DNA from: Bradyrhizobium sp.
GTDB lineage: Bacteria > Pseudomonadota > Alphaproteobacteria > Rhizobiales > Xanthobacteraceae
NCBI RefSeq assembly: GCF_028868675.1
Contig: NZ_JAGWUA010000002.1
Span: 600-64,599 of the forward strand
DNA length: 64,000 bases
Direction: 5' to 3'
The notes beneath the pieces are model-generated. The model searched no databases. It was not told where the DNA came from and saw nothing but the letters and a program-made list of their open reading frames with translations. Position numbers and translations under genes: made by a program. Positions 36,782 to 60,813 of this stretch are shown in pieces (positions within the stretch are counted from its first letter, which is position 1; the number at the start of each line of letters is the position of its first letter).

Positions 36782-36798
36782 GGGACGGCGGAGCGCGA

Positions 36799-38016: not shown

Positions 38017-39428
38017 CCATGGGCAGGCTGTTCATTTCTGCGACCCACAAGTCCTCGGGCAAGACCACGATCTCGGTCGGGCTTGCCGGCGCGCTCGCCG
38101 CGCGCGGCCTGGCGGTCCAGACCTTCAAGAAGGGTCCGGACTACATCGATCCGATGTGGCTTGCGTGGGCGAGCGGCCGCGCCTGCTACAATCTCGACTT
38201 CAATACCCAGAGCGAGCCCGAGATAATGGCGAGCTTTCGCAGCCGCTCGCGCGGCGCCGACATCGTGCTGGTCGAGGGCAACAAGGGACTTCACGACGGC
38301 GTCGATCCCGCGGGAAGCGACAGCAGCGCGGCGCTGGCGCGCCTGCTCCGCACGCCCGCGATCCTGGTGGTGGATGCCATGGGCATGGCGCGGGGCATCG
38401 CGCCGCTCGTGCTCGGCTACACGGCGTTCGACCCGAAGGTCGACGTCGCCGGGATCATCCTCAACAGGGTCGGCGGGGCGCGGCAGGAGTCCAAGCTCCG
38501 TCAGGCGCTCGAACGTTACACCAGCGTGCCGGTGCTGGGCGCAATCGGACGCGACGACGCGCTCGCGGTCGCGGAACGGCATCTCGGCCTGACGACGCCA
38601 GCCGAAGATGCCGGCCGCGACGAGAAGCTCGCGCATATGGGTGAGGTGGTCGCGCGCAATGTCGACCTGGATCGGCTGACCGCGATCGCAGCGGCGGCGG
38701 GACGTCCAGCGGGACCTGCCGTGATCGAGATGCCCGCGCCGCGCGACATCCGGGTCGCCGTGGCGCGCGACGCTGCCTTCGGCTTTTACTATGCCGACGA
38801 CCTCGAGGCGCTGGAGCGGGCCGGCGCGAAGCTCGTCTTCGTCGATCTCCTGCGCGACGAGCGGCTTCCGCCGGTCGACGCGTTGTTCATCGGCGGCGGC
38901 TTTCCCGAGACGCAGGCGGCTGCGCTCGCCGCCAACGGCGCAATGCGCGCTCATCTGCGCGCTGCGATTCGTGGCGGCTTGCCGACTTATGCCGAATGCG
39001 GCGGTCTGATGTATCTGACGCGTTCCATCGCATTCCGCGGCGAGGTCCACGACATGGTCGGGGTCGTCCCGGCCGACACGGTCGTAGGCCAACGCCCGCA
39101 GGGGCGGGGCCTCGTCGTTCTCGAGGAGACGGCTGATGCGCCCTGGCCGTTCCGGCCAGAGCGTTCGTCGATTCCGGCGCACGAATTCCACCACGGCGCG
39201 CTGCGGGACATCGATCCAGGCTGCCGCTTCGCCTATCGCGTGCGGCGGGGCCATGGCGTGGACGGCGCGCGTGACGGCATCGTCATTCATAATCTTCTCG
39301 CCGGCTTCAGTCACTTGCGCGACACCTCGCGTCATCGCTGGGCGCGGCGCTTCATCTCGTTCGCGCGCATGGTGCGCAACAGCGGCGGCTGCGCCGCTGC
39401 GGATCGGAGGCAGCTTGCCGAGCATTAG
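38013..39428 (+). CDS. dsrN: DsrN siroheme amidase (CbiA/CobB-like)
   Basis: KSSGKTT, FKKGPDYIDP, EGNKGLHDG, AECGGLMYL, HEFH; directly follows dsrP. Confidence 0.92.
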   Translation: MTMGRLFISATHKSSGKTTISVGLAGALAARGLAVQTFKKGPDYIDPMWLAWASGRACYNLDFNTQSEPEIMASFRSRSRGADIVLVEGNKGLHDGVDPAGSDSSAALARLLRTPAILVVDAMGMARGIAPLVLGYTAFDPKVDVAGIILNRVGGARQESKLRQALERYTSVPVLGAIGRDDALAVAERHLGLTTPAEDAGRDEKLAHMGEVVARNVDLDRLTAIAAAAGRPAGPAVIEMPAPRDIRVAVARDAAFGFYYADDLEALERAGAKLVFVDLLRDERLPPVDALFIGGGFPETQAAALAANGAMRAHLRAAIRGGLPTYAECGGLMYLTRSIAFRGEVHDMVGVVPADTVVGQRPQGRGLVVLEETADAPWPFRPERSSIPAHEFHHGALRDIDPGCRFAYRVRRGHGVDGARDGIVIHNLLAGFSHLRDTSRHRWARRFISFARMVRNSGGCAAADRRQLAEH

Positions 39429-45977: not shown

Positions 45978-46634
45978 ATGAAGCCAATCCGTTTCTTCGC
46001 AGTCATCGCGGTCCTCGTCACGGCGTCGCCGGCGCTCGCGCAGACCGCGGCCTCACCTGCTGCGCTCGATGGCAAATCGCTGTTCCGGATCAAGACCTGC
46101 GTCGCCTGCCACGGGCGGGACGGCGCGAAGGCAATCCAGAACTATCCCGACCTCGCCGGGCAGGATTCGAAATACATGCAGGCGCAGATGGCCGCGATCG
46201 CCGACGGAAGTCGCGTCTCCGGTCCGGATGCGCGCGGCTATCCGCGCACGCAGGGCATGAAGGACGTGATGCATCTGACGAGCCCCGAGGAACGTGCCGC
46301 GATCGCGGAATTCCTGGCGAGCCAGCCCGCGCCGAAGCCGCGTCCGCTCGATCCGGCTCCGGACGCCGCGCGGCTCACCGCCGGAAAGGACGCCTATCTG
46401 AAGGGCGGTTGCGCGACCTGCCATGGCGCGGACGGTTTGAAGCCACTGGCGACATATCCGCTGATCGCGGGACAGAAGCGCGACTACATCGCGCTGCAGA
46501 TGACGGAAATTCGCGATGGAATCCGCAAGGGCGGCAAGGTCGCCACCATGGTTCCGTTCGCCAAGAAGCTCGACGATGCGAAGATCGGCCTGATCGCCGA
46601 TTACCTGTCGCAGGTCGAGCGGGCGCCGAAATAG
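45978..46634 (+). CDS. Diheme c4-like cytochrome c (NosC-type)
   Basis: Signal peptide; CVACH, CATCH; P.LAGQ/IAGQ motifs. Confidence 0.92.
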   Translation: MKPIRFFAVIAVLVTASPALAQTAASPAALDGKSLFRIKTCVACHGRDGAKAIQNYPDLAGQDSKYMQAQMAAIADGSRVSGPDARGYPRTQGMKDVMHLTSPEERAAIAEFLASQPAPKPRPLDPAPDAARLTAGKDAYLKGGCATCHGADGLKPLATYPLIAGQKRDYIALQMTEIRDGIRKGGKVATMVPFAKKLDDAKIGLIADYLSQVERAPK

Positions 46635-46668: not shown

Positions 46669-47415
46669 ATGAACAAGACTTTATTGGTGGGCATTCTCGC
46701 TGCTGCCCTGGCTGGAACCAGCCTGGTGAACGCAGCCGGACCTGCAGTCGACCAGCAGAAGTTCGAGGAGAACAAGCAGAAGAAGGAGTGGATGAGCCAG
46801 GGTGGCGAGCGCGAAGAGGCGCTCACGCTGAAGCCCAACAAGGACAATGGCCGCGAGGTCTACGAGGTCTGCTCGGCCTGTCACCTGCCGGAAGGATGGG
46901 GCCTGGTCGACGGGACGTTCCCGCAGCTTGCCGGCCAGCATCGGTCCGTCGTCATCAAGCAGCTCGCCGACATCCGCGACGGCCACCGCGACAATCCGAC
47001 GATGTATCCGTTCGCACTGCCGTCGGAGATCGGCGGCACGCAGGCGATCGCCGACGTCTCCGAATACATCGCGACCCTGAAGATGAACCCGGAGAACGGG
47101 GTCGGCAAGGGCGACGATCTGCAGCTCGGCGCGAAGCTCTACGCCGACAATTGCGTCCGCTGCCACGGTCCAGACGGCGCTGGCAACGCCGACAAATACT
47201 ATCCGCGCATTCAGGGCCAGCACTACGAGTACCTGGTGCGGCAGTATCGCTGGATCAGGGAAGGCAAGCGGCGCAACTCGAATCCCGAGATGGTCGAGCA
47301 GATCAAGAACTTCACGGACAAGGACACGCTCGCCGTGCTCGATTACGTCTCGCGCCTGAAGCCGCCGGCCGATCTGGTCGCGCCGAAGGGATGGAAGAAC
47401 CCGGACTTCAAGTAG
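46669..47415 (+). CDS. Diheme c4-like cytochrome c (NosC-type)
   Basis: Signal peptide; CSACH, CVRCH; PQLAGQH, PRIQGQH. Confidence 0.92.
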   Translation: MNKTLLVGILAAALAGTSLVNAAGPAVDQQKFEENKQKKEWMSQGGEREEALTLKPNKDNGREVYEVCSACHLPEGWGLVDGTFPQLAGQHRSVVIKQLADIRDGHRDNPTMYPFALPSEIGGTQAIADVSEYIATLKMNPENGVGKGDDLQLGAKLYADNCVRCHGPDGAGNADKYYPRIQGQHYEYLVRQYRWIREGKRRNSNPEMVEQIKNFTDKDTLAVLDYVSRLKPPADLVAPKGWKNPDFK

Positions 47416-47521
47416 GTCCCGGCGTTTCGGCCCAGGAATAGGATTGCGGAATTGGATTGCGGTCCGTCCCGTCGGCAGCACGGCCGACGGGCGGGGCTAT
47501 CGCAATGCGGGAGATCTGTTC

Positions 47522-48742
47522 ATGACGACGTCCATCAGCCCGTCCGGAAGGAGATCCACGAGTTCGCCTGCGAGCTCAGCATTCCGGCGAAAATGGGCGA
47601 TGCCGCTGATGCGCGTCGCCTCGCTCGTTGCCCTGCTGGCGCTCGGGGCGTCGTTCTTCGTGCCGGTCTGGTGGGTGTCGCTGAAGGCTCCGAATTATCC
47701 GGCGCAGACCTTCCCCCAGGGTGTCCGCATCAACTTCCACGTCAACCGCATCTCCAACGGCTGCGCGATGCGGGAGTCGAAGGAGGTCCTGGAGAAGGAG
47801 GCGCTCGACTGCGTGCACGAGATGGACACGATCAACCATTTCGTCGGCATGTATCCGATCGCGTCCGGAGGTCCGGTCGAGAAGCTGCTGTCGCCGTTCC
47901 TGTTTTCCTTCCTCGGCGTCCTGATCGTCGGCTTCGCGATGCCCGGCGTGCGGCTGCGAACGGCGGCGATGGCGCTCGGCTTCGGCGGGATCGCGGTGTG
48001 GATGTCGGTGGCGCTGTTTGCGCCGAACGGCGTCCGCTATCTCGATCGCGGCTGGGTGGTGGGCCTCGTCGACAGCCTCGGGCGCGCGGAGGACGAGGCC
48101 ACCAACGAGCAGCTCCATCCGGTGGTGAAGCAGCTCAAGGAATCGCTTGCCAGGAGCCATCTCGGCGAGGCGCCGGCGCCCAAGGCCGAGAGCAACGCCA
48201 GCAAGGACCAGCTGATCCAAGTCCTCAAGGCCGTCTACGAGCAGAAGGCGCCCGTCAGCCTGACCGAACCGGCGCCGGTGTGGACCGGTCGCGGCATCGA
48301 CGTGATGGCGTGGCACTATGAGGAGAGTCTTGGGCGCTGGTTCAACGAGCCCGCCAAGAACGAGCGGCTCGTCGCGATCATGAAGACGTCGCTCTACGTC
48401 GTGTATGGCGTCGTCCTGGCGGCGATGCTGGTCTTCCTGTGGGTCGCCCGCAAGCCGCGCTCGCTGCTGTTCTATGCGCTCGGCGCCATCCCGATGATCC
48501 TGCCCGTGGCCTTCGTCATGGAATACGCGGCCTGGCTCTGGTGGTACGGTCACAGCCTCAACGCGATGGGCGCGTTCACGCTCAAGCCGTTCATGCCGAC
48601 GGTGTTCGGCGACGGCAAGGTCGCGCAGTTCTCCACGCACTCCTATCCGTACACCGGCTTCGCGCTGATGTGCGTGGTCGGGGCGGCGATGGCGGTTGCC
48701 CTGCTGTTGCGCCGCGCCGCGCCGAACGCGGTGAAGGACTAG
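47522..48742 (+). CDS. nosB: NosB membrane protein (long form)
   Basis: WWVSLKAPNYP..FPQG, INHFVGM, WWYGHSL, FSTHSYP; position in a clade II cluster. Confidence 0.85.
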   Translation: MTTSISPSGRRSTSSPASSAFRRKWAMPLMRVASLVALLALGASFFVPVWWVSLKAPNYPAQTFPQGVRINFHVNRISNGCAMRESKEVLEKEALDCVHEMDTINHFVGMYPIASGGPVEKLLSPFLFSFLGVLIVGFAMPGVRLRTAAMALGFGGIAVWMSVALFAPNGVRYLDRGWVVGLVDSLGRAEDEATNEQLHPVVKQLKESLARSHLGEAPAPKAESNASKDQLIQVLKAVYEQKAPVSLTEPAPVWTGRGIDVMAWHYEESLGRWFNEPAKNERLVAIMKTSLYVVYGVVLAAMLVFLWVARKPRSLLFYALGAIPMILPVAFVMEYAAWLWWYGHSLNAMGAFTLKPFMPTVFGDGKVAQFSTHSYPYTGFALMCVVGAAMAVALLLRRAAPNAVKD

Positions 48743-48746: not shown

Positions 48747-50168
48747 ATGCCGGCGCTGCCGCGACTGCCGGGCTGGGCGAAGGGCGGCGCCCTCGTCCTC
48801 TCGGGGCTCGCGGTCGCCGCGCTCGTGGCCGTCGGCTTCGGCAAGATCGCCGTCACCTTCGGCGTCTATGACCTCACGCGCGACGCCGGCTTCGCCGACC
48901 ATCATCCGCCGCCGCCGGATCCGCGCTCGGAAGCCGAGTTGGAGAGCCTGCGCCGCTTCCCGCGAGGTGCGACGGCGCTTCAGCCGCTGATCGACGCCAC
49001 CCCGACGGGTGGCGTGCTGCACCTTGCGCCCGGCATCTACGCGGCTCCCGGCATCGTCGGCCGGCCGCTGCGCATCGAGGGTGAGCCGGGCGCCGTCATC
49101 GACGGCGGCGGGGTCGGCTCGATCATGACCGTGGCCGCGGACGACGTGCAGGTCATCGGGCTGACCTTCCGCAATTCCGGCGAGCGGCATGAATCGACCG
49201 ACTCCGCCCTGCGCCTGCGGGGCAAGCACGGGATCTTCCGCGACAACGTCATCGAGGACTGCCTATTCGGCTTCGAGCTGAAGCAGTCGGACATGAACAT
49301 CATCCGGCGCAACCGCATTTCGTCGAAGGATCTGCCCGAGGCGTTGCGCGGCGACGCCGTCCGCGTCTGGTACTCCAACGGCAACCGGATCGAGGACAAC
49401 GACATCGTCCGCACGCGCGACACGGTCGTCTGGTATTCGAAGGAGAACACCATCGACGGCAACCGGATCCGCGACAGCCGGTACGGCGTGCACCTGATGT
49501 ATGCGCATCAGAACAACCTGCGACGCAACGTTCTCGTGGCGAACACCGTGGGCGTATTCCTGATGTACGCCAACGACAACGTGCTGGCCGACAACGTCAT
49601 CCATTACAGCCAGGGGCCGTCGGGCATCGGAATCGGCTTCAAGGAATCCTCCGGCGCCCGCATCGAGCACAACGACGTGTTCGCCAATGCGCGCGGCCTG
49701 TTCATGGATGCCTCTCCCTACGACCCCGACTCGCCCAATCTCTTCGCCGCCAACCGTTTTGCCTACAACGGCGTCGCCATCGCCTTCCACTCCGGCTGGG
49801 AGGGCAATACCTTCAAGGACAACGCCTTCCTCGGCAATCACGCCCAGGCCATGGTCGCCGGCGGCGGCTCGGCGCAGCGCAACGTCTGGGCCGGGAACTT
49901 CTGGGATTCCTACGACGGATTTGATCGAAATCACGATGGCGTCGGCGATACGCCCTACCGTATCTGGACCTGGGCCGACCGACTGTGGATGGACGTGCCC
50001 GATGCGCAGTTCTTCCGTGCCGCGCCGTCGCTCGAGATGATCGATCTCGTCGAGCGCCTCGGTTCGCTCATGGAGCCGCGCCTCGTGCTGTCGGATCCCC
50101 TGCCGCGCGTCGGCGCGGTCGCCGCGGCGGGGCCACGTGGCGTGGCCGTGAGAGAGGTCTTGCAATGA
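48747..50168 (+). CDS. nosD: NosD (clade II cluster)
   Basis: RGDAVRVWYS, RYGVHLMY, GNFWDSYDGFDRNHDGVGDTPY. Confidence 0.93.
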   Translation: MPALPRLPGWAKGGALVLSGLAVAALVAVGFGKIAVTFGVYDLTRDAGFADHHPPPPDPRSEAELESLRRFPRGATALQPLIDATPTGGVLHLAPGIYAAPGIVGRPLRIEGEPGAVIDGGGVGSIMTVAADDVQVIGLTFRNSGERHESTDSALRLRGKHGIFRDNVIEDCLFGFELKQSDMNIIRRNRISSKDLPEALRGDAVRVWYSNGNRIEDNDIVRTRDTVVWYSKENTIDGNRIRDSRYGVHLMYAHQNNLRRNVLVANTVGVFLMYANDNVLADNVIHYSQGPSGIGIGFKESSGARIEHNDVFANARGLFMDASPYDPDSPNLFAANRFAYNGVAIAFHSGWEGNTFKDNAFLGNHAQAMVAGGGSAQRNVWAGNFWDSYDGFDRNHDGVGDTPYRIWTWADRLWMDVPDAQFFRAAPSLEMIDLVERLGSLMEPRLVLSDPLPRVGAVAAAGPRGVAVREVLQ

Positions 50169-50953
50169 AGGACGGTGAATTCGACGCTCCCGCTCCGCCG
50201 GCGAAGGCTGCGTCGCGGGTCGACGAGGAGCGTCGGCGCATGTTGCGCTCGGCCGCGGTCGGCGGCGCCGTGGCCTGCGCGGCCCTGCTGGGCCTGCTCG
50301 ACCATCGCGTGGCGCGGGCCGCGCCGCGGCTTCGGCCGCCCGGAGCGCTCGACGAGGAGGATTTTCTCGCCGCCTGCATCAAGTGCGGACAATGCGTGCA
50401 GGTCTGCCCGGTCGACGCAATCCGGCTCGGCGACCTGAACGAGGGGCTGGCCAACGGCGTTCCGCACATCGTGGCCCGGCACCAGGCCTGCGACTTCTCC
50501 TGCGACGCCACGCAATGCGTCCTGGCGTGCCCGACCGGTGCGCTGAGCCACCTGATCGACCGCAAGGAGCAGACGCGAATGGGCGTGGCGCGCCTCGCCG
50601 CGCCGGACGCCTGCCTCGCGCGCAAGGGCGCGGGCTTCAAGGGCGCCACGCGCGGCGCTGATTTCAAGGGACGTCTGCGTTATGCCGAGATCGACCGGTG
50701 GAAGCCGCAGCCGGTCGCCGATCATCCCTATGATCTCGAGCTTTGCGATCTCTGTGTCCGGCAGTGTCCGATCGAGAACGCAATCGCGCTGGCGCCCATG
50801 TCGGACGATCCGAAGGACCATCGCCGCACCCCGGTGGTGAAGGACGCCTGCGTCGGTTGCGGCGTCTGTGAGATGGTCTGCCCCGTCGAGCCGGCGGCGA
50901 TCCGCATCGAGGTCCGCATCACCGGTCGCGATCCCGGAGGACCCAGCGCATGA
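50165..50953 (+). CDS. nosG: NosG (NapG/MauM-like Fe-S protein)
   Basis: Tat-like RRRML; LRPPGA, CIKCGQCVQVCP, CDLCVRQCP, CVGCGVCEMVCP. Confidence 0.9.
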   Translation: MKDGEFDAPAPPAKAASRVDEERRRMLRSAAVGGAVACAALLGLLDHRVARAAPRLRPPGALDEEDFLAACIKCGQCVQVCPVDAIRLGDLNEGLANGVPHIVARHQACDFSCDATQCVLACPTGALSHLIDRKEQTRMGVARLAAPDACLARKGAGFKGATRGADFKGRLRYAEIDRWKPQPVADHPYDLELCDLCVRQCPIENAIALAPMSDDPKDHRRTPVVKDACVGCGVCEMVCPVEPAAIRIEVRITGRDPGGPSA

Positions 50954-51972
50954 GCAACAGACTGATCGCGCGCAAGCTGCGGGATCTGGCGCTGATGTTC
51001 GGCGCCGCCCCGAAGAAGCCCACTCCGGAGGACATGACCGAAGACGCGCGCGACATGCTCGCCTTCAAGAAGAGCCCCGAGCAGCGCAAGTGGCGCAAGG
51101 CCGCGATCGCGAGCGAGCGCGCCGAGGCGGCGGTGTCGCACAAGTGGCGCTGGATTCGCTGGGCGACGATCTTCGGCTTCAACGGCCTGTTCGTGGCCTC
51201 GTACTGGCTGGACCTGCAGCTCTTCGAAGGAGCGCTGACGGCCTCCCGCGTGCTGGGCTTCCACCTCGCCGACCTCAATTCGTCGCTGCAGCTCATGCTC
51301 GCGCACAAGCACGTCGTGGTCAATCTCGTGATCGGCGTGACGACGGTCTGGCTGATCTACGCGGTGATCGGCGGCCGGAATTTCTGCTCATGGGTCTGCC
51401 CGTACCACTTCCTGGCCGAGCTCGCGGAGATGGTGCATCTGAAGCTCGCGGCGAAGAAGCTGGTGCGCGACCACGAGCTCGATCGGCGGCTGCGTGTCGT
51501 CATGTTCTTCGTGTTCGCCGTGCTCGCCTTCGTCTCCGGCTATCCGCTGTTCGAGGCGATCTCGCCCGTCGGCATCCTGTCACGCGCGCTCACCTACGGC
51601 ACCGTGATCAGCCTGATCTGGGTGGCGCTGCTGCTGCTTGCCGAAATCGTCTGGTCGCGGCGGCTGTGGTGCCGCTACATCTGCCCCGTCGGGCTCGGCT
51701 ATGGCCTCGCCGGCGTCGCGGCGCCGGTACGGATCATGTACGACGCGGACAAGTGCCTGCACGAGGGCAAATGCCGGCAGGTCTGTCTCGTTCCCCACGT
51801 CCTCGACATGACCAAGCTCGGTTTTGCGCGCGATGTCGAGACCCCGGTCGGTGCCGATTGCACGCGTTGCGCGATGTGCATCGACGTCTGTCCGACCGGT
51901 GCGCTCACCTTCGACATTCTCGGCCTGGCGCGCTCCGGCGTCGAGGACACGCCCGAGGACGTCGGGTCATGA
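50950..51972 (+). CDS. nosH: NosH (NapH-like membrane Fe-S quinol dehydrogenase subunit)
   Basis: FCSWVCP, WCRYICP, CLHEGKCRQVC, CTRCAMCIDVCP. Confidence 0.9.
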   Translation: MSNRLIARKLRDLALMFGAAPKKPTPEDMTEDARDMLAFKKSPEQRKWRKAAIASERAEAAVSHKWRWIRWATIFGFNGLFVASYWLDLQLFEGALTASRVLGFHLADLNSSLQLMLAHKHVVVNLVIGVTTVWLIYAVIGGRNFCSWVCPYHFLAELAEMVHLKLAAKKLVRDHELDRRLRVVMFFVFAVLAFVSGYPLFEAISPVGILSRALTYGTVISLIWVALLLLAEIVWSRRLWCRYICPVGLGYGLAGVAAPVRIMYDADKCLHEGKCRQVCLVPHVLDMTKLGFARDVETPVGADCTRCAMCIDVCPTGALTFDILGLARSGVEDTPEDVGS

Positions 51973-52853
51973 TTCTCGTCGACGGGCTGACCAAGAGGTT
52001 CGGCGCCACGCGCGTGCTCGACGGTCTGTCGATCGAGGCGCCTTCGGGTCAGCGCATTGCGCTGGTCGGCTCGAACGGCGCCGGCAAGACCAGCCTGTTC
52101 CGCTGTCTGCTCGGGGAATACGCCTGTCAGGGATCGATTTCCGTCGATGGACTGGATCCGCGCCGCGACCGCGCGCGGCTGCTGCGAACCATCGGATTCG
52201 TGCCGCAGATCGCGCCGCGGCTGGAAACGCCCGTCGGGGCCTTCATCCGCTATGTGGCCGAAGTGTCGGGCGCCTCGGTCGACGAGATCGAAGCGGTCGC
52301 GACCAGCCTCGGTCTCGACGTCGCCGCCGTGCGCAAGCGCGCCTTCGTGCGGTTGTCCGGCGGCATGAAGCAGAAGCTGATGATCGCGCTGGCGCTCGGC
52401 CGGCCGACCAGGCTCCTGATCCTCGACGAGCCGACCGCGAACCTCGATCCGGCAGCGCGCGCGGGCCTGTACGATCTGCTGGCGGCGCGCGGCCGGCACA
52501 CGGCCATGATCATCTCGAGCCACCGCATCGACGAGATCGCGCCTCTGGTGGACCGGGTCGTGGAACTCGACCGCGGACGCATCGTGCTCGACGATACCGT
52601 GAGCGACGCCGGTGCATTGGGATCGACTTTCTTCGCGCAGATCGAAACCGGCCGCCCCGAGGAAAGCTTTGCGCGCGCGGCGCGCGAATGGGGTCTGGCG
52701 CAGGTCGAGGAGCGGCGCTGGCGCGGCACGATCGCCGGGCCCGACAGGCTGCGGTTCCTCGGCTTCGTGGCGCGCCATGCCGGGCGGCTTGCCGGCGTCG
52801 AGTTGCGCGAGGCTCATCGGGAGAACGGCAATGCCGATACGCATTCCGCCTGA
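51969..52853 (+). CDS. nosF: NosF ABC ATPase (clade II)
   Basis: GSNGAGKTS, LSGGMKQK, DEPTANLD. Confidence 0.9.
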   Translation: MILVDGLTKRFGATRVLDGLSIEAPSGQRIALVGSNGAGKTSLFRCLLGEYACQGSISVDGLDPRRDRARLLRTIGFVPQIAPRLETPVGAFIRYVAEVSGASVDEIEAVATSLGLDVAAVRKRAFVRLSGGMKQKLMIALALGRPTRLLILDEPTANLDPAARAGLYDLLAARGRHTAMIISSHRIDEIAPLVDRVVELDRGRIVLDDTVSDAGALGSTFFAQIETGRPEESFARAAREWGLAQVEERRWRGTIAGPDRLRFLGFVARHAGRLAGVELREAHRENGNADTHSA

Positions 52854-53316
52854 GACGCGCCCTGGTGCGACGCGCCGCCGCTTCGTCTGCATGGGGCTCG
52901 GCCTCGCCGTTGCCGGCGGCCTTGCCGGCTGCTCGGAGGCCCGGCCGGCGCCGCGGGCCGTGCGGCTGAAGCGCGAGAGCTGCGACCATTGCGGCATGCC
53001 GATCGGCGATACTCGCTTTGCCAGCGAGATCTGGAATGCCGAATACGGACGGGTGCGGGTCTACGACGATTTCGGCTGCGCGGTGCTCGCCGCGTCCGCG
53101 CGCAAGGAGCTCGACCGGGCCGAAATCGCCTTCTGGGTCGCCGACGAGAGCGACCCTTCGCGCTGGCTCGACGCGCGCACGGCGCATTACCGCAGCGGCG
53201 TCGCCACGCCGATGGGGCACGGCTATGCGGCCGGACCCGAGCGCGATCATCCCGTCGACTACGTGACCGCCTACACCGCCATCTGCGCCAAGGCGCTCTG
53301 CGCCGGTGCGACCTGA
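52831..53316 (+). CDS. nosL: NosL copper chaperone (clade II type)
   Basis: RRRF leader with lipobox LAGC; CDHCGM, DDFGCA, TPMGHG. Confidence 0.88.
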   Translation: MPIRIPPETRPGATRRRFVCMGLGLAVAGGLAGCSEARPAPRAVRLKRESCDHCGMPIGDTRFASEIWNAEYGRVRVYDDFGCAVLAASARKELDRAEIAFWVADESDPSRWLDARTAHYRSGVATPMGHGYAAGPERDHPVDYVTAYTAICAKALCAGAT

Positions 53317-53323
53317 GGTGACC

Positions 53324-54202
53324 ATGCTGCTCGCTTCGCCCGACATCGCGCGCGATCTGCAAGACTCCGGCCTCGGATCCGGATTGGCGGCGACGTTCCG
53401 CCTCGAGGTTTCGCAGGCGCTGCGCGCCCGCTGGTTCTGGGCTTATGCCGCGGTGTTCTTCGGTCTTGTCGGCCTGCTCTTGGTGTTCGGCCTGACGGAG
53501 TCGCGCGTGCTCGGCTTCACCGGCCTGTCGCGCACGCTGGTGGCCTATATCCAGCTCTCGATGGCGATCCTGCCGATCTTCGTGCTCATCACCACGGTGC
53601 GGTCGCTGGCCGGGGACCGGGAAGCCGGCGTGTACGAATACGTGCTCGGACTGCCGGTCGGGATCGGCGGCTGGTACGCCGGCCGCTTCTTCGCGCGCTA
53701 CGCGCTCGCGGTCGCGCCGGTGCTCGGCGCGCTCGTCTCGGCGGTCGCCTACGGCGCGGCGCGCGGCGTCGCCATTCCCTGGGTGGAACTCGGCTTCGAC
53801 ATCGGACTTCTGCTCGCCATGATCCTCGCCTTCGTCGGACTGGGCTTCTTCATCGCGTCGGTGGCGAGTTCGGTGGATCTGGCCCAGACGGCGGCCTTCC
53901 TGTTGTGGCTCGTGCTGATCCTCGGGCTCGATCTCGTTCTGCTCGGCGTCCTGATCCGCGATCGCATGCCGGTCGAGGGCGTCGTCGCCATTGCACTGCT
54001 CAATCCGTTGCAAGTGTTCCGGATCGGGTCCATGGTCCTATTCGATCCGCAGCTCGTCCTCCTGGGCTCGACGGCCTATGCCGTCTTCGACGTCTTCGGC
54101 CGGGTCGGCTTCATGGTCTGGTCGCTCGCTTACCCCCTCGCGCTCGGAATCGGCGCAGCCTATGCGGGTTTCCTGGTATTCCGACGTGGAGATCTCCTGT
54201 GA
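53324..54202 (+). CDS. nosY: NosY ABC permease (clade II)
   Basis: DREAGVYEY, LLNPLQVFR; multi-TM; follows nosF-nosL. Confidence 0.88.
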   Translation: MLLASPDIARDLQDSGLGSGLAATFRLEVSQALRARWFWAYAAVFFGLVGLLLVFGLTESRVLGFTGLSRTLVAYIQLSMAILPIFVLITTVRSLAGDREAGVYEYVLGLPVGIGGWYAGRFFARYALAVAPVLGALVSAVAYGAARGVAIPWVELGFDIGLLLAMILAFVGLGFFIASVASSVDLAQTAAFLLWLVLILGLDLVLLGVLIRDRMPVEGVVAIALLNPLQVFRIGSMVLFDPQLVLLGSTAYAVFDVFGRVGFMVWSLAYPLALGIGAAYAGFLVFRRGDLL

Positions 54203-55104
54203 CGACCTTGGCATCGACCGGTTCGATCGGAACGTGGGTCTTGGGCGCGCGGCCGCGAACGCTCGCGCTGTCCGTCACTCCGGTGGCGGTGGGACTGGCC
54301 TATGCCGCCGCCATGTATGGAGCAATCGACCCGATACCGATCATCGCTGCGCTGGCATCCGCGATCTTCATCCAGATCACGACCAATCTCGCCAACGATT
54401 CGGCGGATGGCGGCCGCGGCGCCGACAAGTCGGAGCGGCTGGGACCGGTGCGGCTCGTCGGCGCCGGGATCATGTCGGCCCCGCAGGTCCGGCGCGGCGC
54501 CATCGTGACCAGTCTCGTCGCGGTGGCCTTCGGCGCCGTGGCGGTCGCCTACGGCGGCGCACCGATCCTGGCGATCGGCCTGGCGTCGCTGCTGGCGGCC
54601 TGGGGCTATTCCTACGGGCCCTGGCCGATCAGTGCCAGCCGCTTCGGTGAGGTGTTCGTCATCCTGTTCTTCGGCGTCGTGGCCACGACCGGCATCGTCT
54701 GGCTCGGCGTGCATCGCGTCGATGCGACCTCGGCGCTGCTCGGCATCGCGACCGGTCTGCCGGCCGCCGCCGTTCTGACCGTCAACAACCACCGCGACCG
54801 CGTTCAGGACGCCGCCTCGGGCCGCCGGACGCTGGCGATGTATCTCGGACCGCGCGGTACGCCGTTCCTCTACGCCGTCGAGCTCGCGGCGGCGGCCGCG
54901 ATCGCAGGCGTCGCGCTCTGGCCGATCAATCGCGCCGGTGCCGTCATTGCCGTGGCGGCGTTCGGATTTGCGCTCTATCTCGGCCATCAGCTCGCCCGCG
55001 CGCCGATCTCGCGCGCGCTGAACGCGATGCTGTCCGCGACGGTGCATTTCCAGGTCGGGCTCGCGGCCGCCATCGTCGCCGTCCTCGTGATGAGCGCCCG
55101 ATGA
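54199..55104 (+). CDS. menA: 1,4-dihydroxy-2-naphthoate polyprenyltransferase (UbiA family)
   Basis: W..GARPRTL, NLANDSAD, G.D...RLGPVR, NNHRDRVQD..GRRTL; GTG overlaps the nosY stop. Confidence 0.88.
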   Translation: MTTLASTGSIGTWVLGARPRTLALSVTPVAVGLAYAAAMYGAIDPIPIIAALASAIFIQITTNLANDSADGGRGADKSERLGPVRLVGAGIMSAPQVRRGAIVTSLVAVAFGAVAVAYGGAPILAIGLASLLAAWGYSYGPWPISASRFGEVFVILFFGVVATTGIVWLGVHRVDATSALLGIATGLPAAAVLTVNNHRDRVQDAASGRRTLAMYLGPRGTPFLYAVELAAAAAIAGVALWPINRAGAVIAVAAFGFALYLGHQLARAPISRALNAMLSATVHFQVGLAAAIVAVLVMSAR

Positions 55105-55604
55105 TCCGCTTCGCCGCAGCGCTCATCGCCGCGGCGGCGTGGACGTCCGCGCTTGCGGCCGACTTCGTGCCGTCGGCGCCGAGGCCGATCGAATTCGTCG
55201 TGCGCGACCGCAACGGCGATGCGCGTACGGCACCGCAGTTGCGCGCGCGCCTGACGGTGCTGCATTTCTGGGCGAGCTGGTGCCTGCCGTGCCGCGACGA
55301 GCTGCCGGCCCTGCAGTCGCTGCAATCCGACCTCGCGGGAGACGGCGTGCGCGTGGTCGCGGTGTCGGTCGACCGGTTGGGCTGGGACGCGATCGACCGC
55401 ACGACGGTAAAGCTGGATGTGCGCGGGCTCGAACTCTATCACGACCGCGACCGCGAGGCGACCGCTGCCCTCGGCGTCGAGGCGCTGCCGACGACGATCC
55501 TCGTCGATGCAGAGGGCCGCGAGGTCGCGCGCATGCGCGGGCAGGGCGAGTGGGGCAATCCCGACGTCCGGCGCGATCTCCTGCGCTTTCGCGATGCGCC
55601 CTGA
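55101..55604 (+). CDS. TlpA/ResA-like thioredoxin
   Basis: Signal peptide, HFWASWCLPCRDELP, LPTTILVD. Confidence 0.9.
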   Translation: MIRFAAALIAAAAWTSALAADFVPSAPRPIEFVVRDRNGDARTAPQLRARLTVLHFWASWCLPCRDELPALQSLQSDLAGDGVRVVAVSVDRLGWDAIDRTTVKLDVRGLELYHDRDREATAALGVEALPTTILVDAEGREVARMRGQGEWGNPDVRRDLLRFRDAP

Positions 55605-55607
55605 GGC

Positions 55608-56345
55608 TCAGGCGGCCGGCTTTCGCGCCGAGTGAACGGCGGCGATGCCGAACGAATAGTCCCGCCATTCTACGTCCACCAGCCCGCTCGATGCGATCAT
55701 GGATGCGAACTCCGCCTGATCGGGAAAGCGCCGGATCGACTCGACGAGATAGCGATAGGCGTCGCGGCGCCTGGAGACGATGGCGCCGAGCAATGGGATC
55801 GCGGTGCGCGACCACAGGCCGTAGAACGGTCGCAGCCAGGCCTGCGGCGTCGAGAATTCCAGGCAGAACAGACGCCCGCCGGGCTTCAAGACCCGTGCGA
55901 TCTCGGCGAGCGCGTCGTCGACGCGCGTCGCATTGCGGATGCCGAACGAGATGGTGATGAGGTCGATGGACGCATCGGGGAAGGGGAGGCGCTCCGCCTC
56001 CGCGGCGATCCACCGAAGGCCGTCGGCGCCGGGCCGTCCTCGCCCGGCGCGCATCATCTCCGGCGAGGGATCGACGACCAGCGTGCGGGCGCCGGCGGAC
56101 GCGAGTGCCAGCGCGATGTCGCCGGTGCCGCCGGCGAGATCCACCGCGATCTCGCCCGGCCGCGCCGCCGCGAGGGCGACAAAGGCGGACTTCCAGAGCC
56201 GGTGAATCCCCATGCTCATGAGGTCGTTCATCACATCGTAGCGCGGCGCCACCTGCGCGAAGGTGCGCCGGATGAGCTGCTGGCGCTGGTCGACCGAGAC
56301 CGTGGCCGCGCCAAAGCTGCGCGCAAGCTTGTCGCCGGCGCTCAT
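55608..56345 (-). CDS. ubiE: UbiE/MenG quinone C-methyltransferase paralog
   Basis: VAPRYDVMNDLMSMGIHRLWK, DLAGGTGD, SFGIRN, VLKPGG..CLEFS, YLVESIRRFPDQ. Confidence 0.9.
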   Translation of the reverse strand: MSAGDKLARSFGAATVSVDQRQQLIRRTFAQVAPRYDVMNDLMSMGIHRLWKSAFVALAAARPGEIAVDLAGGTGDIALALASAGARTLVVDPSPEMMRAGRGRPGADGLRWIAAEAERLPFPDASIDLITISFGIRNATRVDDALAEIARVLKPGGRLFCLEFSTPQAWLRPFYGLWSRTAIPLLGAIVSRRRDAYRYLVESIRRFPDQAEFASMIASSGLVDVEWRDYSFGIAAVHSARKPAA

Positions 56346-56346: not shown

Positions 56347-56901
56347 TCATCTCGCCAGCATGGAGGCGCGGATGCGTTCCGCGAGCGCGCCGCCGTCGAG
56401 GTCGTGCGGATAGCGTCCGACGATCGCGCCGGAGGGATCGGCAAGAAATATCGCCGCGGTGTGGTCGACCGAATAGGAATTCTTGTCCTTGAGCTCGACC
56501 CGGGCGTATTTGACCCGCCACTGGGCCGCCAGAGTCGCAAGCTGATCCGGGTGAGGCGACAGGCCGACCATGCGCGGGTGGAAGTAGCCGACGTATTCGG
56601 CGACGACGCCGGGCGTGTCGCGTTCGGGATCGACGGTCACGAACACCGGCGTGATGCGCTCGCCGACAGGGCCGAGCACATCGAGCGCCTGGCCCATGCT
56701 CTGCAGCGAGATCGGGCAGATGTCGGGGCAGTTCGTGTAGCCGAAATAGACGAGCTTCCAGCCGGCAATGTCGCCGGCTGCGATCTCGCGCCCATCCTGC
56801 CGCACGCCGAACAGCTCGGCGGCCTGCGCGGGACACGACGGCGCGGCCAGCAGGCAAAGCACCGCGGCCAGGACGGCGAACAGCCGGCGAGACACGCGCA
56901 C
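56347..56901 (-). CDS. Sco/SenC copper chaperone
   Basis: YFGYTNCPDICP, TVDPERDT, VDHTA; GTG start with GGAGG RBS. Confidence 0.92.
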   Translation of the reverse strand: MRVSRRLFAVLAAVLCLLAAPSCPAQAAELFGVRQDGREIAAGDIAGWKLVYFGYTNCPDICPISLQSMGQALDVLGPVGERITPVFVTVDPERDTPGVVAEYVGYFHPRMVGLSPHPDQLATLAAQWRVKYARVELKDKNSYSVDHTAAIFLADPSGAIVGRYPHDLDGGALAERIRASMLAR

Positions 56902-56986: not shown

Positions 56987-57000
56987 TTGATGCGAGTCAA
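56987..57000. promoter_or_regulatory. FNR/FixK2-type box upstream of sco-ubiE
   Basis: TTGAT-GCGA-GTCAA, about 86 nt upstream of the sco start. Confidence 0.8.
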
Positions 57001-57036: not shown

Positions 57037-57945
57037 CTACAGCGCGACGCTGCGCAGGCCGAAGCTGCGGGCCTCGTTCTGCAGCACCGGGCGGACTGCG
57101 TCGACCAGGCGGGCTGCAGCCGCATCGACGGACAGTCCGGCGGTGTCCACCACCGCCGCCGCGCGCGAATACAGCGGCTCGCGGCTGAGCAGGATGTTGC
57201 GCAGCTCCGTCATCGCCGAGCGGTCGTCCGCCATCGGGCGGAGGTCGCCCTGCCGGCGCACGCGCGCCATGTGCTCCTCCGGCTCGGCCTTCAGCCAGAT
57301 CGTGTAGAACGACGACAGGATCTGGTCGAAGGTCAGGGGCTCGGAGACGATGCCGCCGCCGGTCGCCAGCACCATCAATTCGCTACGCGCAAGCAACTGC
57401 TGCAGCGCCGCCTGCTCCATGCGGCGAAATCCTTCCTGGCCGTACAGCGCGATGATCTCGGCGACCGACAAGCCGTTCTGCTGCTCGATCTCCTTGTTGA
57501 GTTCGACGAAGCCCCAGCCGATCTTCTTCGCCAAGATCCTGCCGAGCGTGGATTTGCCGGCGCCGCGCAGGCCGATCAGCGCGATGCCGCAGAACGGTGC
57601 GCGCCGCGGTGTGTGCGCGCCGCCGCCGGCGAGCAGGTCCTTGGCCTGCGCGACCTGGCCGGGCGTCGCTTTCCGCAGGAGATCGCGGAACATCGGCCAG
57701 TCCGGCGTCGGATCGACGGTGGGAAGCAGATCCTCCAGATGCGCGCCCATCGCGTCCGACACGCGCCGCAGCAGCACGATCGAGACGTTGCCCTTGCCGC
57801 TTTCCAGTTGTGCAATGTAGCGCTCGGAGATGCCGGATACTTTCGCGAGCACCTTGCGCGACATGCCGCGCAGCGCGCGCATGGTGCGGACGCGCTGGCC
57901 GAGCTGTTCGAGAAATTGGGCTTCGGCGTCGGGACTTTCGGTCAT
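57037..57945 (-). CDS. boxR: BoxR/BzdR regulator (XRE HTH + shikimate-kinase-like domain)
   Basis: SERYIAQLESGKGNVSI, IGLRGAGKST, ATGGG; divergent from the benzoate-CoA ligase gene. Confidence 0.93.
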   Translation of the reverse strand: MTESPDAEAQFLEQLGQRVRTMRALRGMSRKVLAKVSGISERYIAQLESGKGNVSIVLLRRVSDAMGAHLEDLLPTVDPTPDWPMFRDLLRKATPGQVAQAKDLLAGGGAHTPRRAPFCGIALIGLRGAGKSTLGRILAKKIGWGFVELNKEIEQQNGLSVAEIIALYGQEGFRRMEQAALQQLLARSELMVLATGGGIVSEPLTFDQILSSFYTIWLKAEPEEHMARVRRQGDLRPMADDRSAMTELRNILLSREPLYSRAAAVVDTAGLSVDAAAARLVDAVRPVLQNEARSFGLRSVAL

Positions 57946-58067
57946 AGGCTTTCTTTAGCGGATGTCCGGCGGCGCAATTGTCGGAAACATAATGCCTGAT
58001 GGCATTGACAGCAAGCGCCGACGGTGTCTTTCTATGAATTATAATTCAAATTTCGAGGGAGAAGTCC

Positions 58068-59609
58068 GTGAGCGAGGCATCCTACAACGCGGTGACCTGG
58101 CTGCTCGATCGCAATGTCGGGGAGGGCCGGGGCAACAAGCTGGCGTTCGACGACACCGTTTCCAGGCTCACCTATGGCGAGCTGCGCGAGCAGACCTGTC
58201 GCGCCGCCAACATGCTGCGCCGTCTCGGCGTCCGCCGCGAGGAGCGCGTCGCGATGATCATGCTGGATACGGTCGATTTCCCGACCGTGTTCCTGGGCGC
58301 GATGCGCGCCGGCATCGTGCCGGTGCCGCTCAACACGCTGTTGACGTCGGACCAATATGCCTATGTGCTCGCCGACTGCCGCGCGCGCGTGCTGTTCGTC
58401 TCCGACGCGCTCTATCCCGTGGTCAAGGACATGGTCGGTCGCTTGCCCGATCTCGAGCATGTCGTGATCGCCGGAAGCAAGATGAACGGCCACAGGCAAC
58501 TCGCCGAGGAGCTTGCGCCGGAGAGCGCCGCGTTCGCCACCGCCGCGACGCATCCGGACGAGCCGGCCTTCTGGCTCTATTCCTCCGGCTCGACCGGCAT
58601 GCCCAAGGGCGTGCGGCACCTGCATTCCAGCCTGCAGGCCACCGCCGACACCTACGCCAAACAGGTGCTCGGCATCCGCGAGGACGACGTCGGTCTCTCC
58701 GCGGCAAAGCTGTTCTTCGCCTACGGGCTCGGCAATGCGTTGACCTTCCCGATGTCGGTCGGCGCCACCACGATTCTGAACATCGAGCGGCCGACGCCGG
58801 CGCGGATGTTCGAACTCCTGAACAAGTACAACCCGACGATCTTCTACGGCGTGCCGACGCTGTTCGCCGCGATGCTGAACGACGAGAGCGTGAAGGACGC
58901 GCGTGCGGGCAATCGGCTGCGCATCTGCACCTCGGCGGGCGAGGCGCTGCCGGAATCGGTCGGCCATGCCTGGAAGGCGCGCTTCGGCGTCGACATCCTC
59001 GACGGCGTCGGCTCGACGGAATTGCTGCACATCTTCCTGTCGAACGCGCCCGGCGACATCAAGTACGGCTCCTCGGGGCGGCCGGTGCCGGGCTACAAGG
59101 TGCGGCTGGTCAACGAGGCCGGCGAGGACGTGCCGGACGGCGAGGTTGGCGAGATGGTGGTGGACGCGCCCTCGGCCGGTGAGGGCTACTGGAACCAGCG
59201 CAGCAAGAGCCGCCGCACCTTCGAGGGCCACTGGACCCGTACCGGTGACAAATATGTCCGCGATGCCGATGGCCGCTACAATTTCTGCGGCCGTTCCGAC
59301 GACATGTTCAAGGTTTCCGGCATCTGGGTCTCGCCGTTCGAGGTGGAGAGCGCGCTGATTACGCACCCGGCCGTGCTGGAAGCCGCCGTGGTGCCGGAAG
59401 CCGATGCCGAGGGCCTGCTGAAGCCGAAAGCCTTTGTCGTGCTGCGGCCCGGCAGCAAGGCGAGCGAGTTGCAGGAGGCGCTGAAGGAGCACGTCAAGCA
59501 GAAGATCGGCGTCTGGAAATATCCGCGCTGGATCGAAACGGTGGACTCGCTGCCGAAGACCGCCACGGGAAAGATCCAGCGCTTCAAGCTCCGCGAAGGC
59601 GCGCATTGA
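58068..59609 (+). CDS. Benzoate-CoA ligase
   Basis: WLYSSGSTGMPKG, KLFFAYGLGN, SAGEALP, DGVGSTE, RTGD, KTATGKIQRF. Confidence 0.93.
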   Translation: MSEASYNAVTWLLDRNVGEGRGNKLAFDDTVSRLTYGELREQTCRAANMLRRLGVRREERVAMIMLDTVDFPTVFLGAMRAGIVPVPLNTLLTSDQYAYVLADCRARVLFVSDALYPVVKDMVGRLPDLEHVVIAGSKMNGHRQLAEELAPESAAFATAATHPDEPAFWLYSSGSTGMPKGVRHLHSSLQATADTYAKQVLGIREDDVGLSAAKLFFAYGLGNALTFPMSVGATTILNIERPTPARMFELLNKYNPTIFYGVPTLFAAMLNDESVKDARAGNRLRICTSAGEALPESVGHAWKARFGVDILDGVGSTELLHIFLSNAPGDIKYGSSGRPVPGYKVRLVNEAGEDVPDGEVGEMVVDAPSAGEGYWNQRSKSRRTFEGHWTRTGDKYVRDADGRYNFCGRSDDMFKVSGIWVSPFEVESALITHPAVLEAAVVPEADAEGLLKPKAFVVLRPGSKASELQEALKEHVKQKIGVWKYPRWIETVDSLPKTATGKIQRFKLREGAH

Positions 59610-60478
59610 TGATGCGCGGCCGAGACGAATCCTTCGTTGGAGCCGCTCGCTCCGCTCTGCTCCCGCCCCTCACGCCGACCGGCTTCCTCGCCATCGACGG
59701 CGCGAGCCTCGAATACAGATGGCTGGCGCCGCAGGCTGCGGATGCGCCTGCCATCGTCATGCTGCATGAAGGGCTCGGCTGCGTCGGCCTGTGGGGCGAC
59801 TTTCCGGACCGGCTGCAACAGGCGACCGGTGCCGGCGTGTTTCTCTATTCGCGCGCGGGCTACGGCCAGTCGAGCCCGGTAACCTTGCCGCGGCCGCTCG
59901 ACTATATGCATCGTGAGGCGACGGAGGTGCTGCCGAAGATCCTCGACACGATCGGCTTCCGTCGCGGGCTCCTGCTCGGCCATTCCGACGGCGCCTCGAT
60001 CGCCGCGATCTATGCCGGCGCGCATCAGGATCATCGCCTGCAGGGCGTGGCGATGATCGCGCCCCATTTCGTCGTCGAGGACATCTCCGTGAAGTCGATC
60101 GCAGCGATCAGGACAACCTACGAGACCACGGAGCTGAAGGCGAAGCTCGCGCGCTGGCACAAGCATGTCGACAACGCCTTCTACGGCTGGAACGGCGCCT
60201 GGCTCGATCCAAAATTCCGCGAATGGGATATTTCCGACTATCTCGCCTACATCCGCGTCCCCGTTCTGGTCGTGCAGGGCATGGACGACCAGTATGGCAC
60301 GATGAGGCAGGTCGAGATTGCGCGGGAAGAGTGCTATTGTCCGGTAGATTTGAAAGTCATTTCAGGCGCGGGACATTCCCCGCATCGTGAGGCGCCGGGG
60401 GCGACGCTTGACGCGATCGTACGATTTGCAGAGGCGGCCTTGCGCGACGATCGGGGTCCGGCAGGGCGTGTCGCATGA
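59606..60478 (+). CDS. Alpha/beta hydrolase
   Basis: LHEGLG, GHSDGASIA, QGMDDQYG, GHSPH. Confidence 0.9.
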   Translation: MMMRGRDESFVGAARSALLPPLTPTGFLAIDGASLEYRWLAPQAADAPAIVMLHEGLGCVGLWGDFPDRLQQATGAGVFLYSRAGYGQSSPVTLPRPLDYMHREATEVLPKILDTIGFRRGLLLGHSDGASIAAIYAGAHQDHRLQGVAMIAPHFVVEDISVKSIAAIRTTYETTELKAKLARWHKHVDNAFYGWNGAWLDPKFREWDISDYLAYIRVPVLVVQGMDDQYGTMRQVEIAREECYCPVDLKVISGAGHSPHREAPGATLDAIVRFAEAALRDDRGPAGRVA

Positions 60479-60499
60479 ACCATCGGGGCTCTTCCGCCG

Positions 60500-60705
60500 A
60501 TGAGCCTGCAATCCGCGCGCGATCCATTGCCGTGCGCGCCGCAGGCACTGCGCGCCCTCAGCGCTCGCAAGGCGACCGCGTCCGGCGAGGCTTTGCCGAC
60601 GGCTTTCCGACCGAGGCGTTGTCGGCGCTGTTGCAGGCCAAGCTCGGCCATCCCCAACTCTGCAAGGCCGATTGGATCGCGCTGGCCTCGGTGACTCGCG
60701 TATGA
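60500..60705 (+). pseudogene. Probable deleted and frameshifted remnant of a DUF309-type gene
   Basis: MSLQSARDPLP...ALRALSARKATASG then, in another frame, GFADGFPTEALSALLQAKLG..KADW; resemblance to the gene usually upstream of boxC is from memory only. Confidence 0.4.
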
Positions 60706-60753
60706 AGCAAAATGCATATATCGTAAATTCTTGACTGGACGCGCGTCAAAAGA

Positions 60754-60767
60754 TGCATTATTGTGCA
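60754..60767. promoter_or_regulatory. BzdR/BoxR-type operator upstream of boxC
   Basis: TGCA-TTATTG-TGCA, another TGCA at 60713, TTGACT at 60731. Confidence 0.6.
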
Positions 60768-60813
60768 TATAACGGTAAAACCGAAGCTCATCACTAATCT
60801 TCAAGGGTAGCTC

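Follow-up and report, generated by a model that had tools for sequence, protein, structure and literature searches.

menA and ubiE in a clade II nos cluster of Bradyrhizobium: a candidate menaquinone-finishing module linked to NosGH

The nos cluster of Wolinella succinogenes (nosZ,B,D,G,C1,C2,H,F,Y,L) codes for a Sec-type NosZ, the enzyme that reduces nitrous oxide (N2O), together with NosB, NosD, NosGH, two c-type cytochromes, NosF, NosY and NosL, in an organism whose housekeeping quinone is menaquinone and whose NapGH and NosGH proteins are regarded as menaquinol dehydrogenases. We analysed a stretch of 64,000 nucleotides (nt) from Bradyrhizobium sp. (assembly GCF_028868675.1, contig NZ_JAGWUA010000002.1, positions 600 to 64,599; hereafter the window) that holds a cluster with the same set of genes, likewise with neither nosR nor nosX inside it. 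The window cluster differs from that of W. succinogenes in having C1 and C2 before nosB and nosL before nosY, in the genes menA, tlpA, ubiE and sco1 that are appended to it, and in its host, a ubiquinone-type alphaproteobacterium. In our view menA and ubiE are probably working accessory genes of this NosGH-type cluster, forming a reduced menaquinone module that would supply NosGH. At the membrane, MenA would prenylate 1,4-dihydroxy-2-naphthoate (DHNA) to demethylmenaquinone and UbiE would C-methylate the latter to menaquinone; the low-potential naphthoquinol would thus be supplied, or topped up, for the NosGH quinol dehydrogenase, from which electrons would pass to NosC1/C2 and on to clade II NosZ (NosZ-II). 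This route would run in a host with ubiquinone as its normal quinone pool, beside a clade I NosZ fed by ubiquinone and bc1, the gene for which lies 30 kb upstream.

MenA-UbiE pairs of the same subfamilies occur in Blastochloris viridis (49% and 62% identity to the window proteins, respectively), which contains menaquinone-9, and in Rhodoblastus acidophilus (43% and 58%), and in both species, as in the window, the two genes are adjacent and convergent. Unlike in the window, the B. viridis pair lies beside the photosynthesis gene cluster and the R. acidophilus pair in a men locus, neither being linked to nos, and both species also encode menF, menD, menB, menC and menH; the B. viridis entry in Table S1 of PMC11707229 lists MenA, B, C, D, F and H and two UbiE copies. 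In a neighbour-joining tree the clade of the window ubiE includes the MenA-adjacent second copies of these two menaquinone producers. Streptococcus agalactiae, Lactiplantibacillus plantarum and gut anaerobes resemble the window in encoding only terminal menaquinone steps locally, but in these organisms the absence of the upstream genes is established genome-wide and salvage has been demonstrated experimentally, whereas in the present case the upstream genes are missing from the window and the flanks of related loci. The TlpA-ScoI system for CuA maturation in Bradyrhizobium diazoefficiens is also comparable, since in the window a periplasmic CxxC thioredoxin and a Sco1 protein (CxxxC) again accompany a CuA enzyme; the window tlpA and sco1 are, however, cluster-specific paralogues, and the best NCBIfam match of the TlpA-like protein, the TlpA model NF047696 (91.7 bits), is under its cutoff.

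The clade II nos cluster and its menA and ubiE genes

An earlier note, made from the sequence alone, had described a clade II nos cluster with nosGH, nosY, menA and ubiE at 50165-56345, and family matches confirm these genes, nosF and a nosL-like gene lying in the same interval (Table 1). Because the G+C content of the window is high (62-70%), reading frames were picked by their third-position G+C and then checked with Pfam and NCBIfam. The plus-strand run from nosZ to tlpA spans 43.5 to 55.6 kb, with sco1 and ubiE convergent on the minus strand, and the cluster has the features that define clade II, namely a Sec-type NosZ, nosB, NapG/NapH-type nosGH and cytochromes c. The nosZ-II gene starts at ATG 43562, which is preceded by an AGGAG Shine-Dalgarno sequence, and its product begins with a Sec-type signal peptide, MKSLLKMSVAAGALLCFGGTAAFA. 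NosG and NosH constitute a putative quinol dehydrogenase. Neither the nosB-like protein, in a Pfam and NCBIfam search, nor the nosL-like protein, in profile scans, matched a family.

The GTG start codon of menA at 54199 lies inside the nosY stop codon (GTGA overlap), as the earlier note had stated, the menA stop codon overlaps the tlpA start (ATGA), and a distance of 1 nt separates the sco1 stop codon from the ubiE ATG, ubiE being the second gene of a sco1-ubiE operon. Judging by these junctions, the nosY-menA, menA-tlpA and sco1-ubiE pairs appear to be translationally coupled. The MenA protein shares with its E. coli counterpart (35% identity) the UbiA-type prenyltransferase fold and the NxxxDxxxD and NNxRDxxxD motifs, and the two Asp-rich motifs for Mg2+ and diphosphate binding are present as NLANDSAD and NNHRDRVQD; residues N63, N66, D67, D70, N196, N197, R199, D200 and D204 are invariant among 18 homologues of 46-100% identity. 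Its score against NF004751 (213.5 bits) is under the cutoff of 264. UbiE, a class I S-adenosylmethionine (SAM)-dependent methyltransferase like E. coli UbiE (42% identity), is under the cutoff of every NCBIfam equivalog model (best NF001242, 260 bits vs 351), and its homologues are labelled by NCBI only as "class I SAM-dependent methyltransferase". The arrangement is unlike the classical Men one, as menA stands away from other men genes and ubiE follows sco1 instead of lying in a ubiE-ubiJ-ubiB context.

The closest MenA homologues (79-81% identity) belong to Bradyrhizobium sp. Y36, Bradyrhizobium sp. UNPA324 and B. nanningense CCBAU 53390, and the window DapD shares a 90%-identity cluster with proteins of Bradyrhizobium. 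The nearest relatives of MenA outside the Alphaproteobacteria (41-47% identity; Gemmatimonadota, Longimicrobiales and Myxococcota) are encoded in menF-menD-menB-menA-menE operons, and UBIAD1 is the sole related solved structure. In comparison with Bradyrhizobium isolates, the ratio of non-synonymous to synonymous substitution rates (dN/dS) is 0.17-0.19 for menA and 0.13-0.17 for ubiE, with 0.13-0.16 for nosY and similar values for nosD; menA and ubiE are under purifying selection. Plasmid carriage was rejected, as MenA homologues of this type were not found in PLSDB. Taken together, the sequence evidence supports the view that menA and ubiE are true genes for the terminal steps to menaquinone and are part of the clade II nos cluster.

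The earlier note also placed ubiE 0.5 kb past menA and under an FNR-type box. The spacing is right, but it is occupied by the tlpA gene (55101-55604), and ubiE is convergent on the minus strand; the box exists too, as a perfect TTGA-N6-TCAA sequence (TTGACTCGCATCAA), but it fronts sco1, within the gap of 135 nt that separates boxR from sco1, and is 640 nt upstream of ubiE. Standing about 92 nt ahead of the start codon of sco1 (GTG 56901), it is a candidate promoter element of the sco1-ubiE operon, which in Bradyrhizobium probably responds to low oxygen through this FixK/FNR-type box. The same box also stands upstream of sco1 in Bradyrhizobium sp. Y36 and B. nanningense; it was not found in the other genera compared, save for one differently placed match in a Cohaesibacter metagenome-assembled genome (MAG). 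FNR-like matches with at most two mismatches number 21 in the whole window (10.4 expected). The lone candidate for nosZ-II, with two mismatches and about 500 nt upstream, was not convincing. The stop codons of tlpA and ubiE, on opposite strands, are 3 nt apart (55602-55610), which leaves no room for a terminator, so that convergent transcription of both operons would collide.

Linkage of men genes to nos clusters in other lineages

Two independent surveys recover the linkage, by which chance adjacency is rejected. The first, anchored on MenA and restricted to a single genome for each species, yielded about 34 alphaproteobacterial loci, of which about 19, from Hyphomicrobiales species genomes, have the order nosZ-C1-C2-B-D-G-H-F-L-Y-menA-tlpA / ubiE-sco1 within unrelated flanks. 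The module is carried by Bradyrhizobium (two genomes), Rhodoblastus, Rhodoplanes, Methylocystaceae and Methylobacteriaceae MAGs, Pinisolibacter aquiterrae, Siculibacillus and Prosthecomicrobium, and is kept across at least six genera; the Cohaesibacter MAG has a rearranged form, sco1-x-ubiE-menA, followed by a PCuAC gene on the opposite strand and then nosZ. The second survey, anchored on NosY and directed at metagenomes, gave 18 assessable loci of alphaproteobacterial type (NosY at least 60% identical), with menA downstream of nosY in 17. Gene calls in related loci are tblastn-based and the metagenome loci carry no taxonomy. The survey of menA-nos linkage that the earlier note had proposed therefore finds it conserved across genera and gene arrangements. 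Candidate further quinone genes in the variable tlpA-ubiE spacers and by the Cohaesibacter cluster were rejected, only RlaP-like, AhpC-family, AraC-type regulator, nir and PCuAC genes being present. Stand-alone menA copies of Rhodoblastus and Methylobacteriaceae MAGs (L003, L008-L015 and L026) are the nearest kin of the nos-linked Rhodoblastus menA; they follow AMP-binding ligase and RidA genes, outside any men locus.

A fuller version of the arrangement was found on a metagenomic 53-kb contig of 66% G+C, on which locus L105 also lies (cluster at L170/L171 1-15680). There, with overlapping start and stop codons, the order is nosB-D-G-H-F-L-Y-SRPBCC-menF-menD-menB-menA-menC-tlpA, followed by convergent menE-ubiE-sco1; when SRPBCC, menF, menD, menB, menC and menE are subtracted, the exact gene order of the window remains. 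Identity to the window proteins is 59% for NosG and NosH, 61% for NosY, 55% for UbiE, 38% for MenA and Sco1 and 37% for TlpA, and the host is probably alphaproteobacterial, judging by the relatives of its MenB. The nosY-menA-tlpA / ubiE-sco1 arrangement of the window would then be a reduced form of nosY-(SRPBCC-menF-menD-menB)-menA-(menC)-tlpA / (menE)-ubiE-sco1, known from a related lineage. We infer that window-type clusters lost the men genes for soluble enzymes, the alternative, as the trees are unrooted, being a gain in L170. An SRPBCC/COQ10-type (Polyketide_cyc) protein, which may be a quinone-binding chaperone, is encoded beside menA in three loci of alphaproteobacterial type (L086, 11810-12307; L169, 4785-5234; L170, 6491-6958), and the gene is absent from the window.

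In more distant nosGH clusters, men genes directly follow nosY in seven of about 40 assessable non-alphaproteobacterial loci, with NosY proteins 52-59% identical and with differing gene orders and base compositions. Clade II nosGH clusters of low or medium G+C (L165, L122 and L123; Table 1) are among them; two others (L150 and L160) have tlpA-ubiE-menA after nosY, and a further two (L131 and L141) have menA there. In L141 (46-3203), nosY is followed by a small thioredoxin-sized open reading frame, menA and a BASS-family (bile acid:sodium symporter-type) transporter gene, whose product is a possible candidate for the uptake of an aromatic carboxylate such as DHNA. Since L170 is collinear with the window and the nosY-men adjacency recurs independently elsewhere, the best reading of menA and ubiE of the window is that they are what has been kept, at the terminal end, of a menaquinone pathway travelling with nos clusters of the NosGH type. 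Full-text literature searches found no papers linking men genes to nos clusters; the component families are known, and what is new is the conserved menaquinone-finishing module in a clade II nos cluster of ubiquinone-type hosts and its relation to the clusters with full men sets.

The same comparison raises the question of whether the two genes are only leftovers of a decayed men operon, making no naphthoquinone or acting on another substrate, with ubiE serving ubiquinone synthesis and menA prenylating another aromatic acid. Five of the seven men genes of the L170 arrangement are missing in the window, ubiE or menA has been lost in a few lineages, and UbiE enzymes can be bifunctional, the window ubiE scoring, as said, under all equivalog cutoffs. 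Nevertheless, a relic would hardly be expected to combine dN/dS values of 0.13-0.19 with invariant catalytic motifs, tight translational coupling and a menA gene retained downstream in 17 of 18 clusters of alphaproteobacterial type and in at least six genera, and the retained pair corresponds to exactly the two consecutive terminal steps. We consider such decay or repurposing unlikely.

Proposed use of a quinone and possible sources of DHNA

That a naphthoquinone is made and used by NosGH may be inferred from the family assignment of NosGH, its recurrent linkage to men genes and the role attributed to Wolinella NapGH and NosGH as menaquinol dehydrogenases. Several observations weigh against this reading. 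E. coli NapGH reportedly works with ubiquinol, and menaquinol need therefore not be a requirement for NosGH; it is tlpA and sco1, genes of copper maturation, and not nosGH, among which the men genes are interspersed; and about 33 of 40 assessable non-alphaproteobacterial nosGH clusters have no men gene nearby. Also against it, among related clusters, locus L090 (6001-8700) has cleanly lost menA while retaining tlpA, ubiE and sco1, and ubiE is missing with menA kept in three metagenome loci (L093, L095 and L101) and one from the genome survey (L020). The trees are neighbour-joining trees with no support values. Transcript data also bear on the question: in favour of the reading, no nosZ was transcribed more than the clade II nosZ of MAG MS_R2_11 in a microaerobic chemostat that consumed N2O at trace levels (PMC9381517), and this MAG is our locus L021, whose NosZ is 83% identical to that of Bradyrhizobium sp. 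Y36. On L021 the metatranscriptome contigs of that study cover nosZ strongly, with coverage falling downstream to a weak signal at tlpA (one contig), and no contig lies over menA, though the downstream tlpA is covered. The authors regarded this nosZ as an atypical, possibly transferred gene in Rhizobiales, and quinones, nosG and nosH are not mentioned (PMC9381517). As a separate observation, variants with menA but no ubiE would make demethylmenaquinone unless a host UbiE acts on it.

The position of the men genes could also mean that it is copper-centre or thiol-redox maturation (TlpA, Sco1 and CuA assembly in NosZ) that the quinone serves, and not electron donation through NosGH. The men genes adjoin tlpA, sco1 or PCuAC genes, not nosGH, in the window and in loci L170, L034, L150 and L160, and a fusion of MenA to thioredoxin (P0099) exists in the database. 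However, L165, L122 and L123 join men genes to nosY with neither tlpA nor sco1, the gene order may merely reflect insertion at the end of the operon, and TlpA-type proteins, which act as reductants, are not known to be coupled to quinones; we hold a maturation role to be very improbable. P0099 itself, a protein of 359 residues with a MenA domain joined to a thioredoxin/redoxin domain, mirrors the menA-tlpA overlap and could be a real fusion or a frameshift. The earlier suggestion that SQR or DsrMK might also use the quinone is not supported by synteny: SQR and dsr genes, 10-30 kb from the module in the window, are absent from its flanks in other hosts, and in each of the other hosts examined it is nos, and not dsr or sqr, that accompanies the module.

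If menaquinone is finished for NosGH, DHNA would come from elsewhere than the locus. As the earlier note had observed, the window has no menFDHCEB or mqn genes: in tblastn searches with E. coli MenB, C, D, E, F and H, upstream men genes were not found in the window, where the lone match was a benzoate-CoA ligase, a weak MenE relative; the flanks of alphaproteobacterial-type loci likewise contain no upstream men or mqn genes, and mqn-type Pfam families were not found among about 50 scanned window genes. The futalosine route was rejected on the latter result and because it was not found in Pseudomonadota (PMC11707229). Among the rows used from Table S1 of the same paper, the complete Bradyrhizobium genomes score zero for MenA, MenB, MenD and MenF (these strains also lack the module) and typical ones have one UbiE (B. 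viridis has two), an indirect hint that the window ubiE may be a paralogue beside a housekeeping ubiE; on these entries "import of menaquinone chemistry", the wording of the earlier note, is a fair description.

These data raise the possibility that Bradyrhizobium-type hosts do not synthesize DHNA, so that in ubiquinone-only hosts the high-affinity clade II N2O reductase would work only with DHNA or a naphthoquinone precursor supplied by neighbours, the cluster keeping just the two membrane steps of a once complete men pathway embedded in nos and NosZ-II respiration becoming community-dependent. In favour of such cross-feeding, besides the missing men and mqn genes of the window and of the flanks and the table entries and futalosine result of PMC11707229, gut and lactic acid bacteria offer documented cases of partial menA/ubiE pathways that rely on salvaged DHNA (PMC4746308, PMC10746273), the window sequence is found in mixed soil, wetland and wastewater communities, and L141 has a BASS-family transporter gene after menA. 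A MenB search seeded with the L105 protein recovered an alphaproteobacterial clade (Rhodoblastus acidophilus, R. sphagnicola, Rhodoblastus sp., Afifella, Rhodobium, Rhodospira and a Magnetospirillum MAG), and no Bradyrhizobium, Pinisolibacter or Siculibacillus names were among the best 120 matches, a weak negative since only about one quarter of the entries are named; a MenB search of PLSDB found no alphaproteobacterial MenB. Against cross-feeding, the zero scores come from Bradyrhizobium strains lacking the module and not from carriers (Y36, UNPA324, CCBAU 53390 and P. aquiterrae B13), and no dedicated importer is conserved in the cluster. Moreover, Rhodoblastus holds the module together with a complete housekeeping men locus of its own, and in one Rhodoblastus MAG a second menA exists besides the nos-linked copy (L006 and L010), so that the module alone does not imply salvage. 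We therefore put forward dependence on neighbours only as a tentative and rather doubtful extension.

Surrounding genes and meaning for N2O respiration

Table 1. Coordinates of features in the window and of men genes in three distant nosGH loci (positions of the latter refer to the locus named).
Feature	Position	Strand	Evidence or remark
nosR	12090-14423		clade I cluster
nosZ-I	~14420-16369		clade I cluster; followed by nosD, nosF, nosY
nosX/apbE	20038-21033		clade I cluster; gap before nosX probably holds nosL
nosZ clade II (Sec-dependent), 763 aa	43562..45853	+	TIGR04246, 868 bits vs cutoff 625
nosC1, c-type cytochrome	45978-46634	+	Pfam Cytochrom_C / Cytochrome_CBB3; position constant in all related loci
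nosC2, c-type cytochrome	46669-47415	+	Pfam Cytochrom_C / Cytochrome_CBB3; position constant in all related loci
nosB-like membrane protein	47444..48742	+	assigned by position; 67-84% identity at same place in related clusters
nosD	48747..50168	+	TIGR04247, 360 bits vs cutoff 300
nosG, NapG-type polyferredoxin	50165-50953	+	TIGR00397 and NF007012
nosH, NapH-type membrane Fe-S protein	50950-51972	+	TIGR02163, 233.6 bits vs cutoff 213
nosF	51969-52853	+	ABC_tran
nosL-like lipoprotein gene	52831-53316	+	lipobox and conserved position
nosY	53324-54202	+	ABC2_membrane_2
menA, 1,4-dihydroxy-2-naphthoate polyprenyltransferase family, 301 aa	54199-55104	+	PF01040, 73 bits; TIGR00751, 139.8 bits vs cutoff 102
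tlpA-like periplasmic thioredoxin, WCLPC motif	55101..55604	+	AhpC-TSA and Redoxin
ubiE/menG-type C-methyltransferase, 245 aa	55608..56345	-	PF01209, 222 bits; TIGR01934, 246 bits vs cutoff 158
sco1/senC copper chaperone	56347..56901	-	PF02630, 137 bits; GTG 56901 with GGAGG in front
FixK/FNR-type box	56987-57000		perfect TTGA-N6-TCAA, upstream of sco1
L165 (41% G+C): menC, menD, menB, menF	5983-12800	as nosY	menC, menD, menB above NCBIfam cutoffs; menF as isochorismate synthase
L122: ubiE and menE-like gene	5971-8932	as nosY	right after nosY
L123: menE-like gene	5971-8446	as nosY	right after nosY
aa, amino acids.

The window also contains a complete nos cluster of clade I (nosRZDFYLX, 12090-21033), which precedes the clade II cluster by 22 kb on the upstream side and to which nosR and nosX of the window (12-21 kb) are confined, so that both NosZ clades are encoded within 35 kb. 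Clade I NosZ is classically fed through ubiquinol, bc1 and cytochrome c, and given the presence of this system the organism may run two N2O reductases off two different quinone pools. A reverse-type Dsr sulfur-oxidation cluster, which is unusual for Bradyrhizobium, occupies 23384-39428 (dsrA, B, E, F, H, C, M, K and L, a gap that is a candidate for dsrJ/O, and dsrP); its region also includes a cobyrinic-acid-diamide-synthase-like dsrN candidate, a DsrE2-like gene and an SQR-like flavoprotein gene (23932-25251, minus strand). On the far side of sco1-ubiE, at 57037-62502, we identified a BoxR/BzdR-type regulator with XRE and shikimate-kinase-like domains, a benzoate-CoA ligase and a BoxC-like crotonase; these benzoyl-CoA (box) pathway genes beyond sco1 belong to a different function from the nos cluster.

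The window sequence recurs in soil, wetland, sediment and wastewater metagenomes, and organisms with clade II NosZ are sought-after N2O sinks. The conserved arrangement described here suggests that this N2O sink runs on menaquinone rather than on the usual ubiquinone of its host. The men genes are repeatedly linked to nosGH-type clusters, from the full pathway to menA alone, which provides a concrete example of a respiratory module that moves together with the quinone suited to it, an issue that PMC11707229 had raised. If the electron supply of this NosZ-II depends on a menaquinone pool that the host can make only in part, the quinone specificity of NosGH would be open to direct testing, assays in pure culture may understate how much N2O the strains that carry the module can reduce, and DHNA or vitamin K precursors would be a candidate lever for N2O mitigation with Bradyrhizobium inoculants. 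Should cross-feeding prove true, N2O consumption by these bacteria would be community-dependent, and a vitamin K precursor could switch it on.

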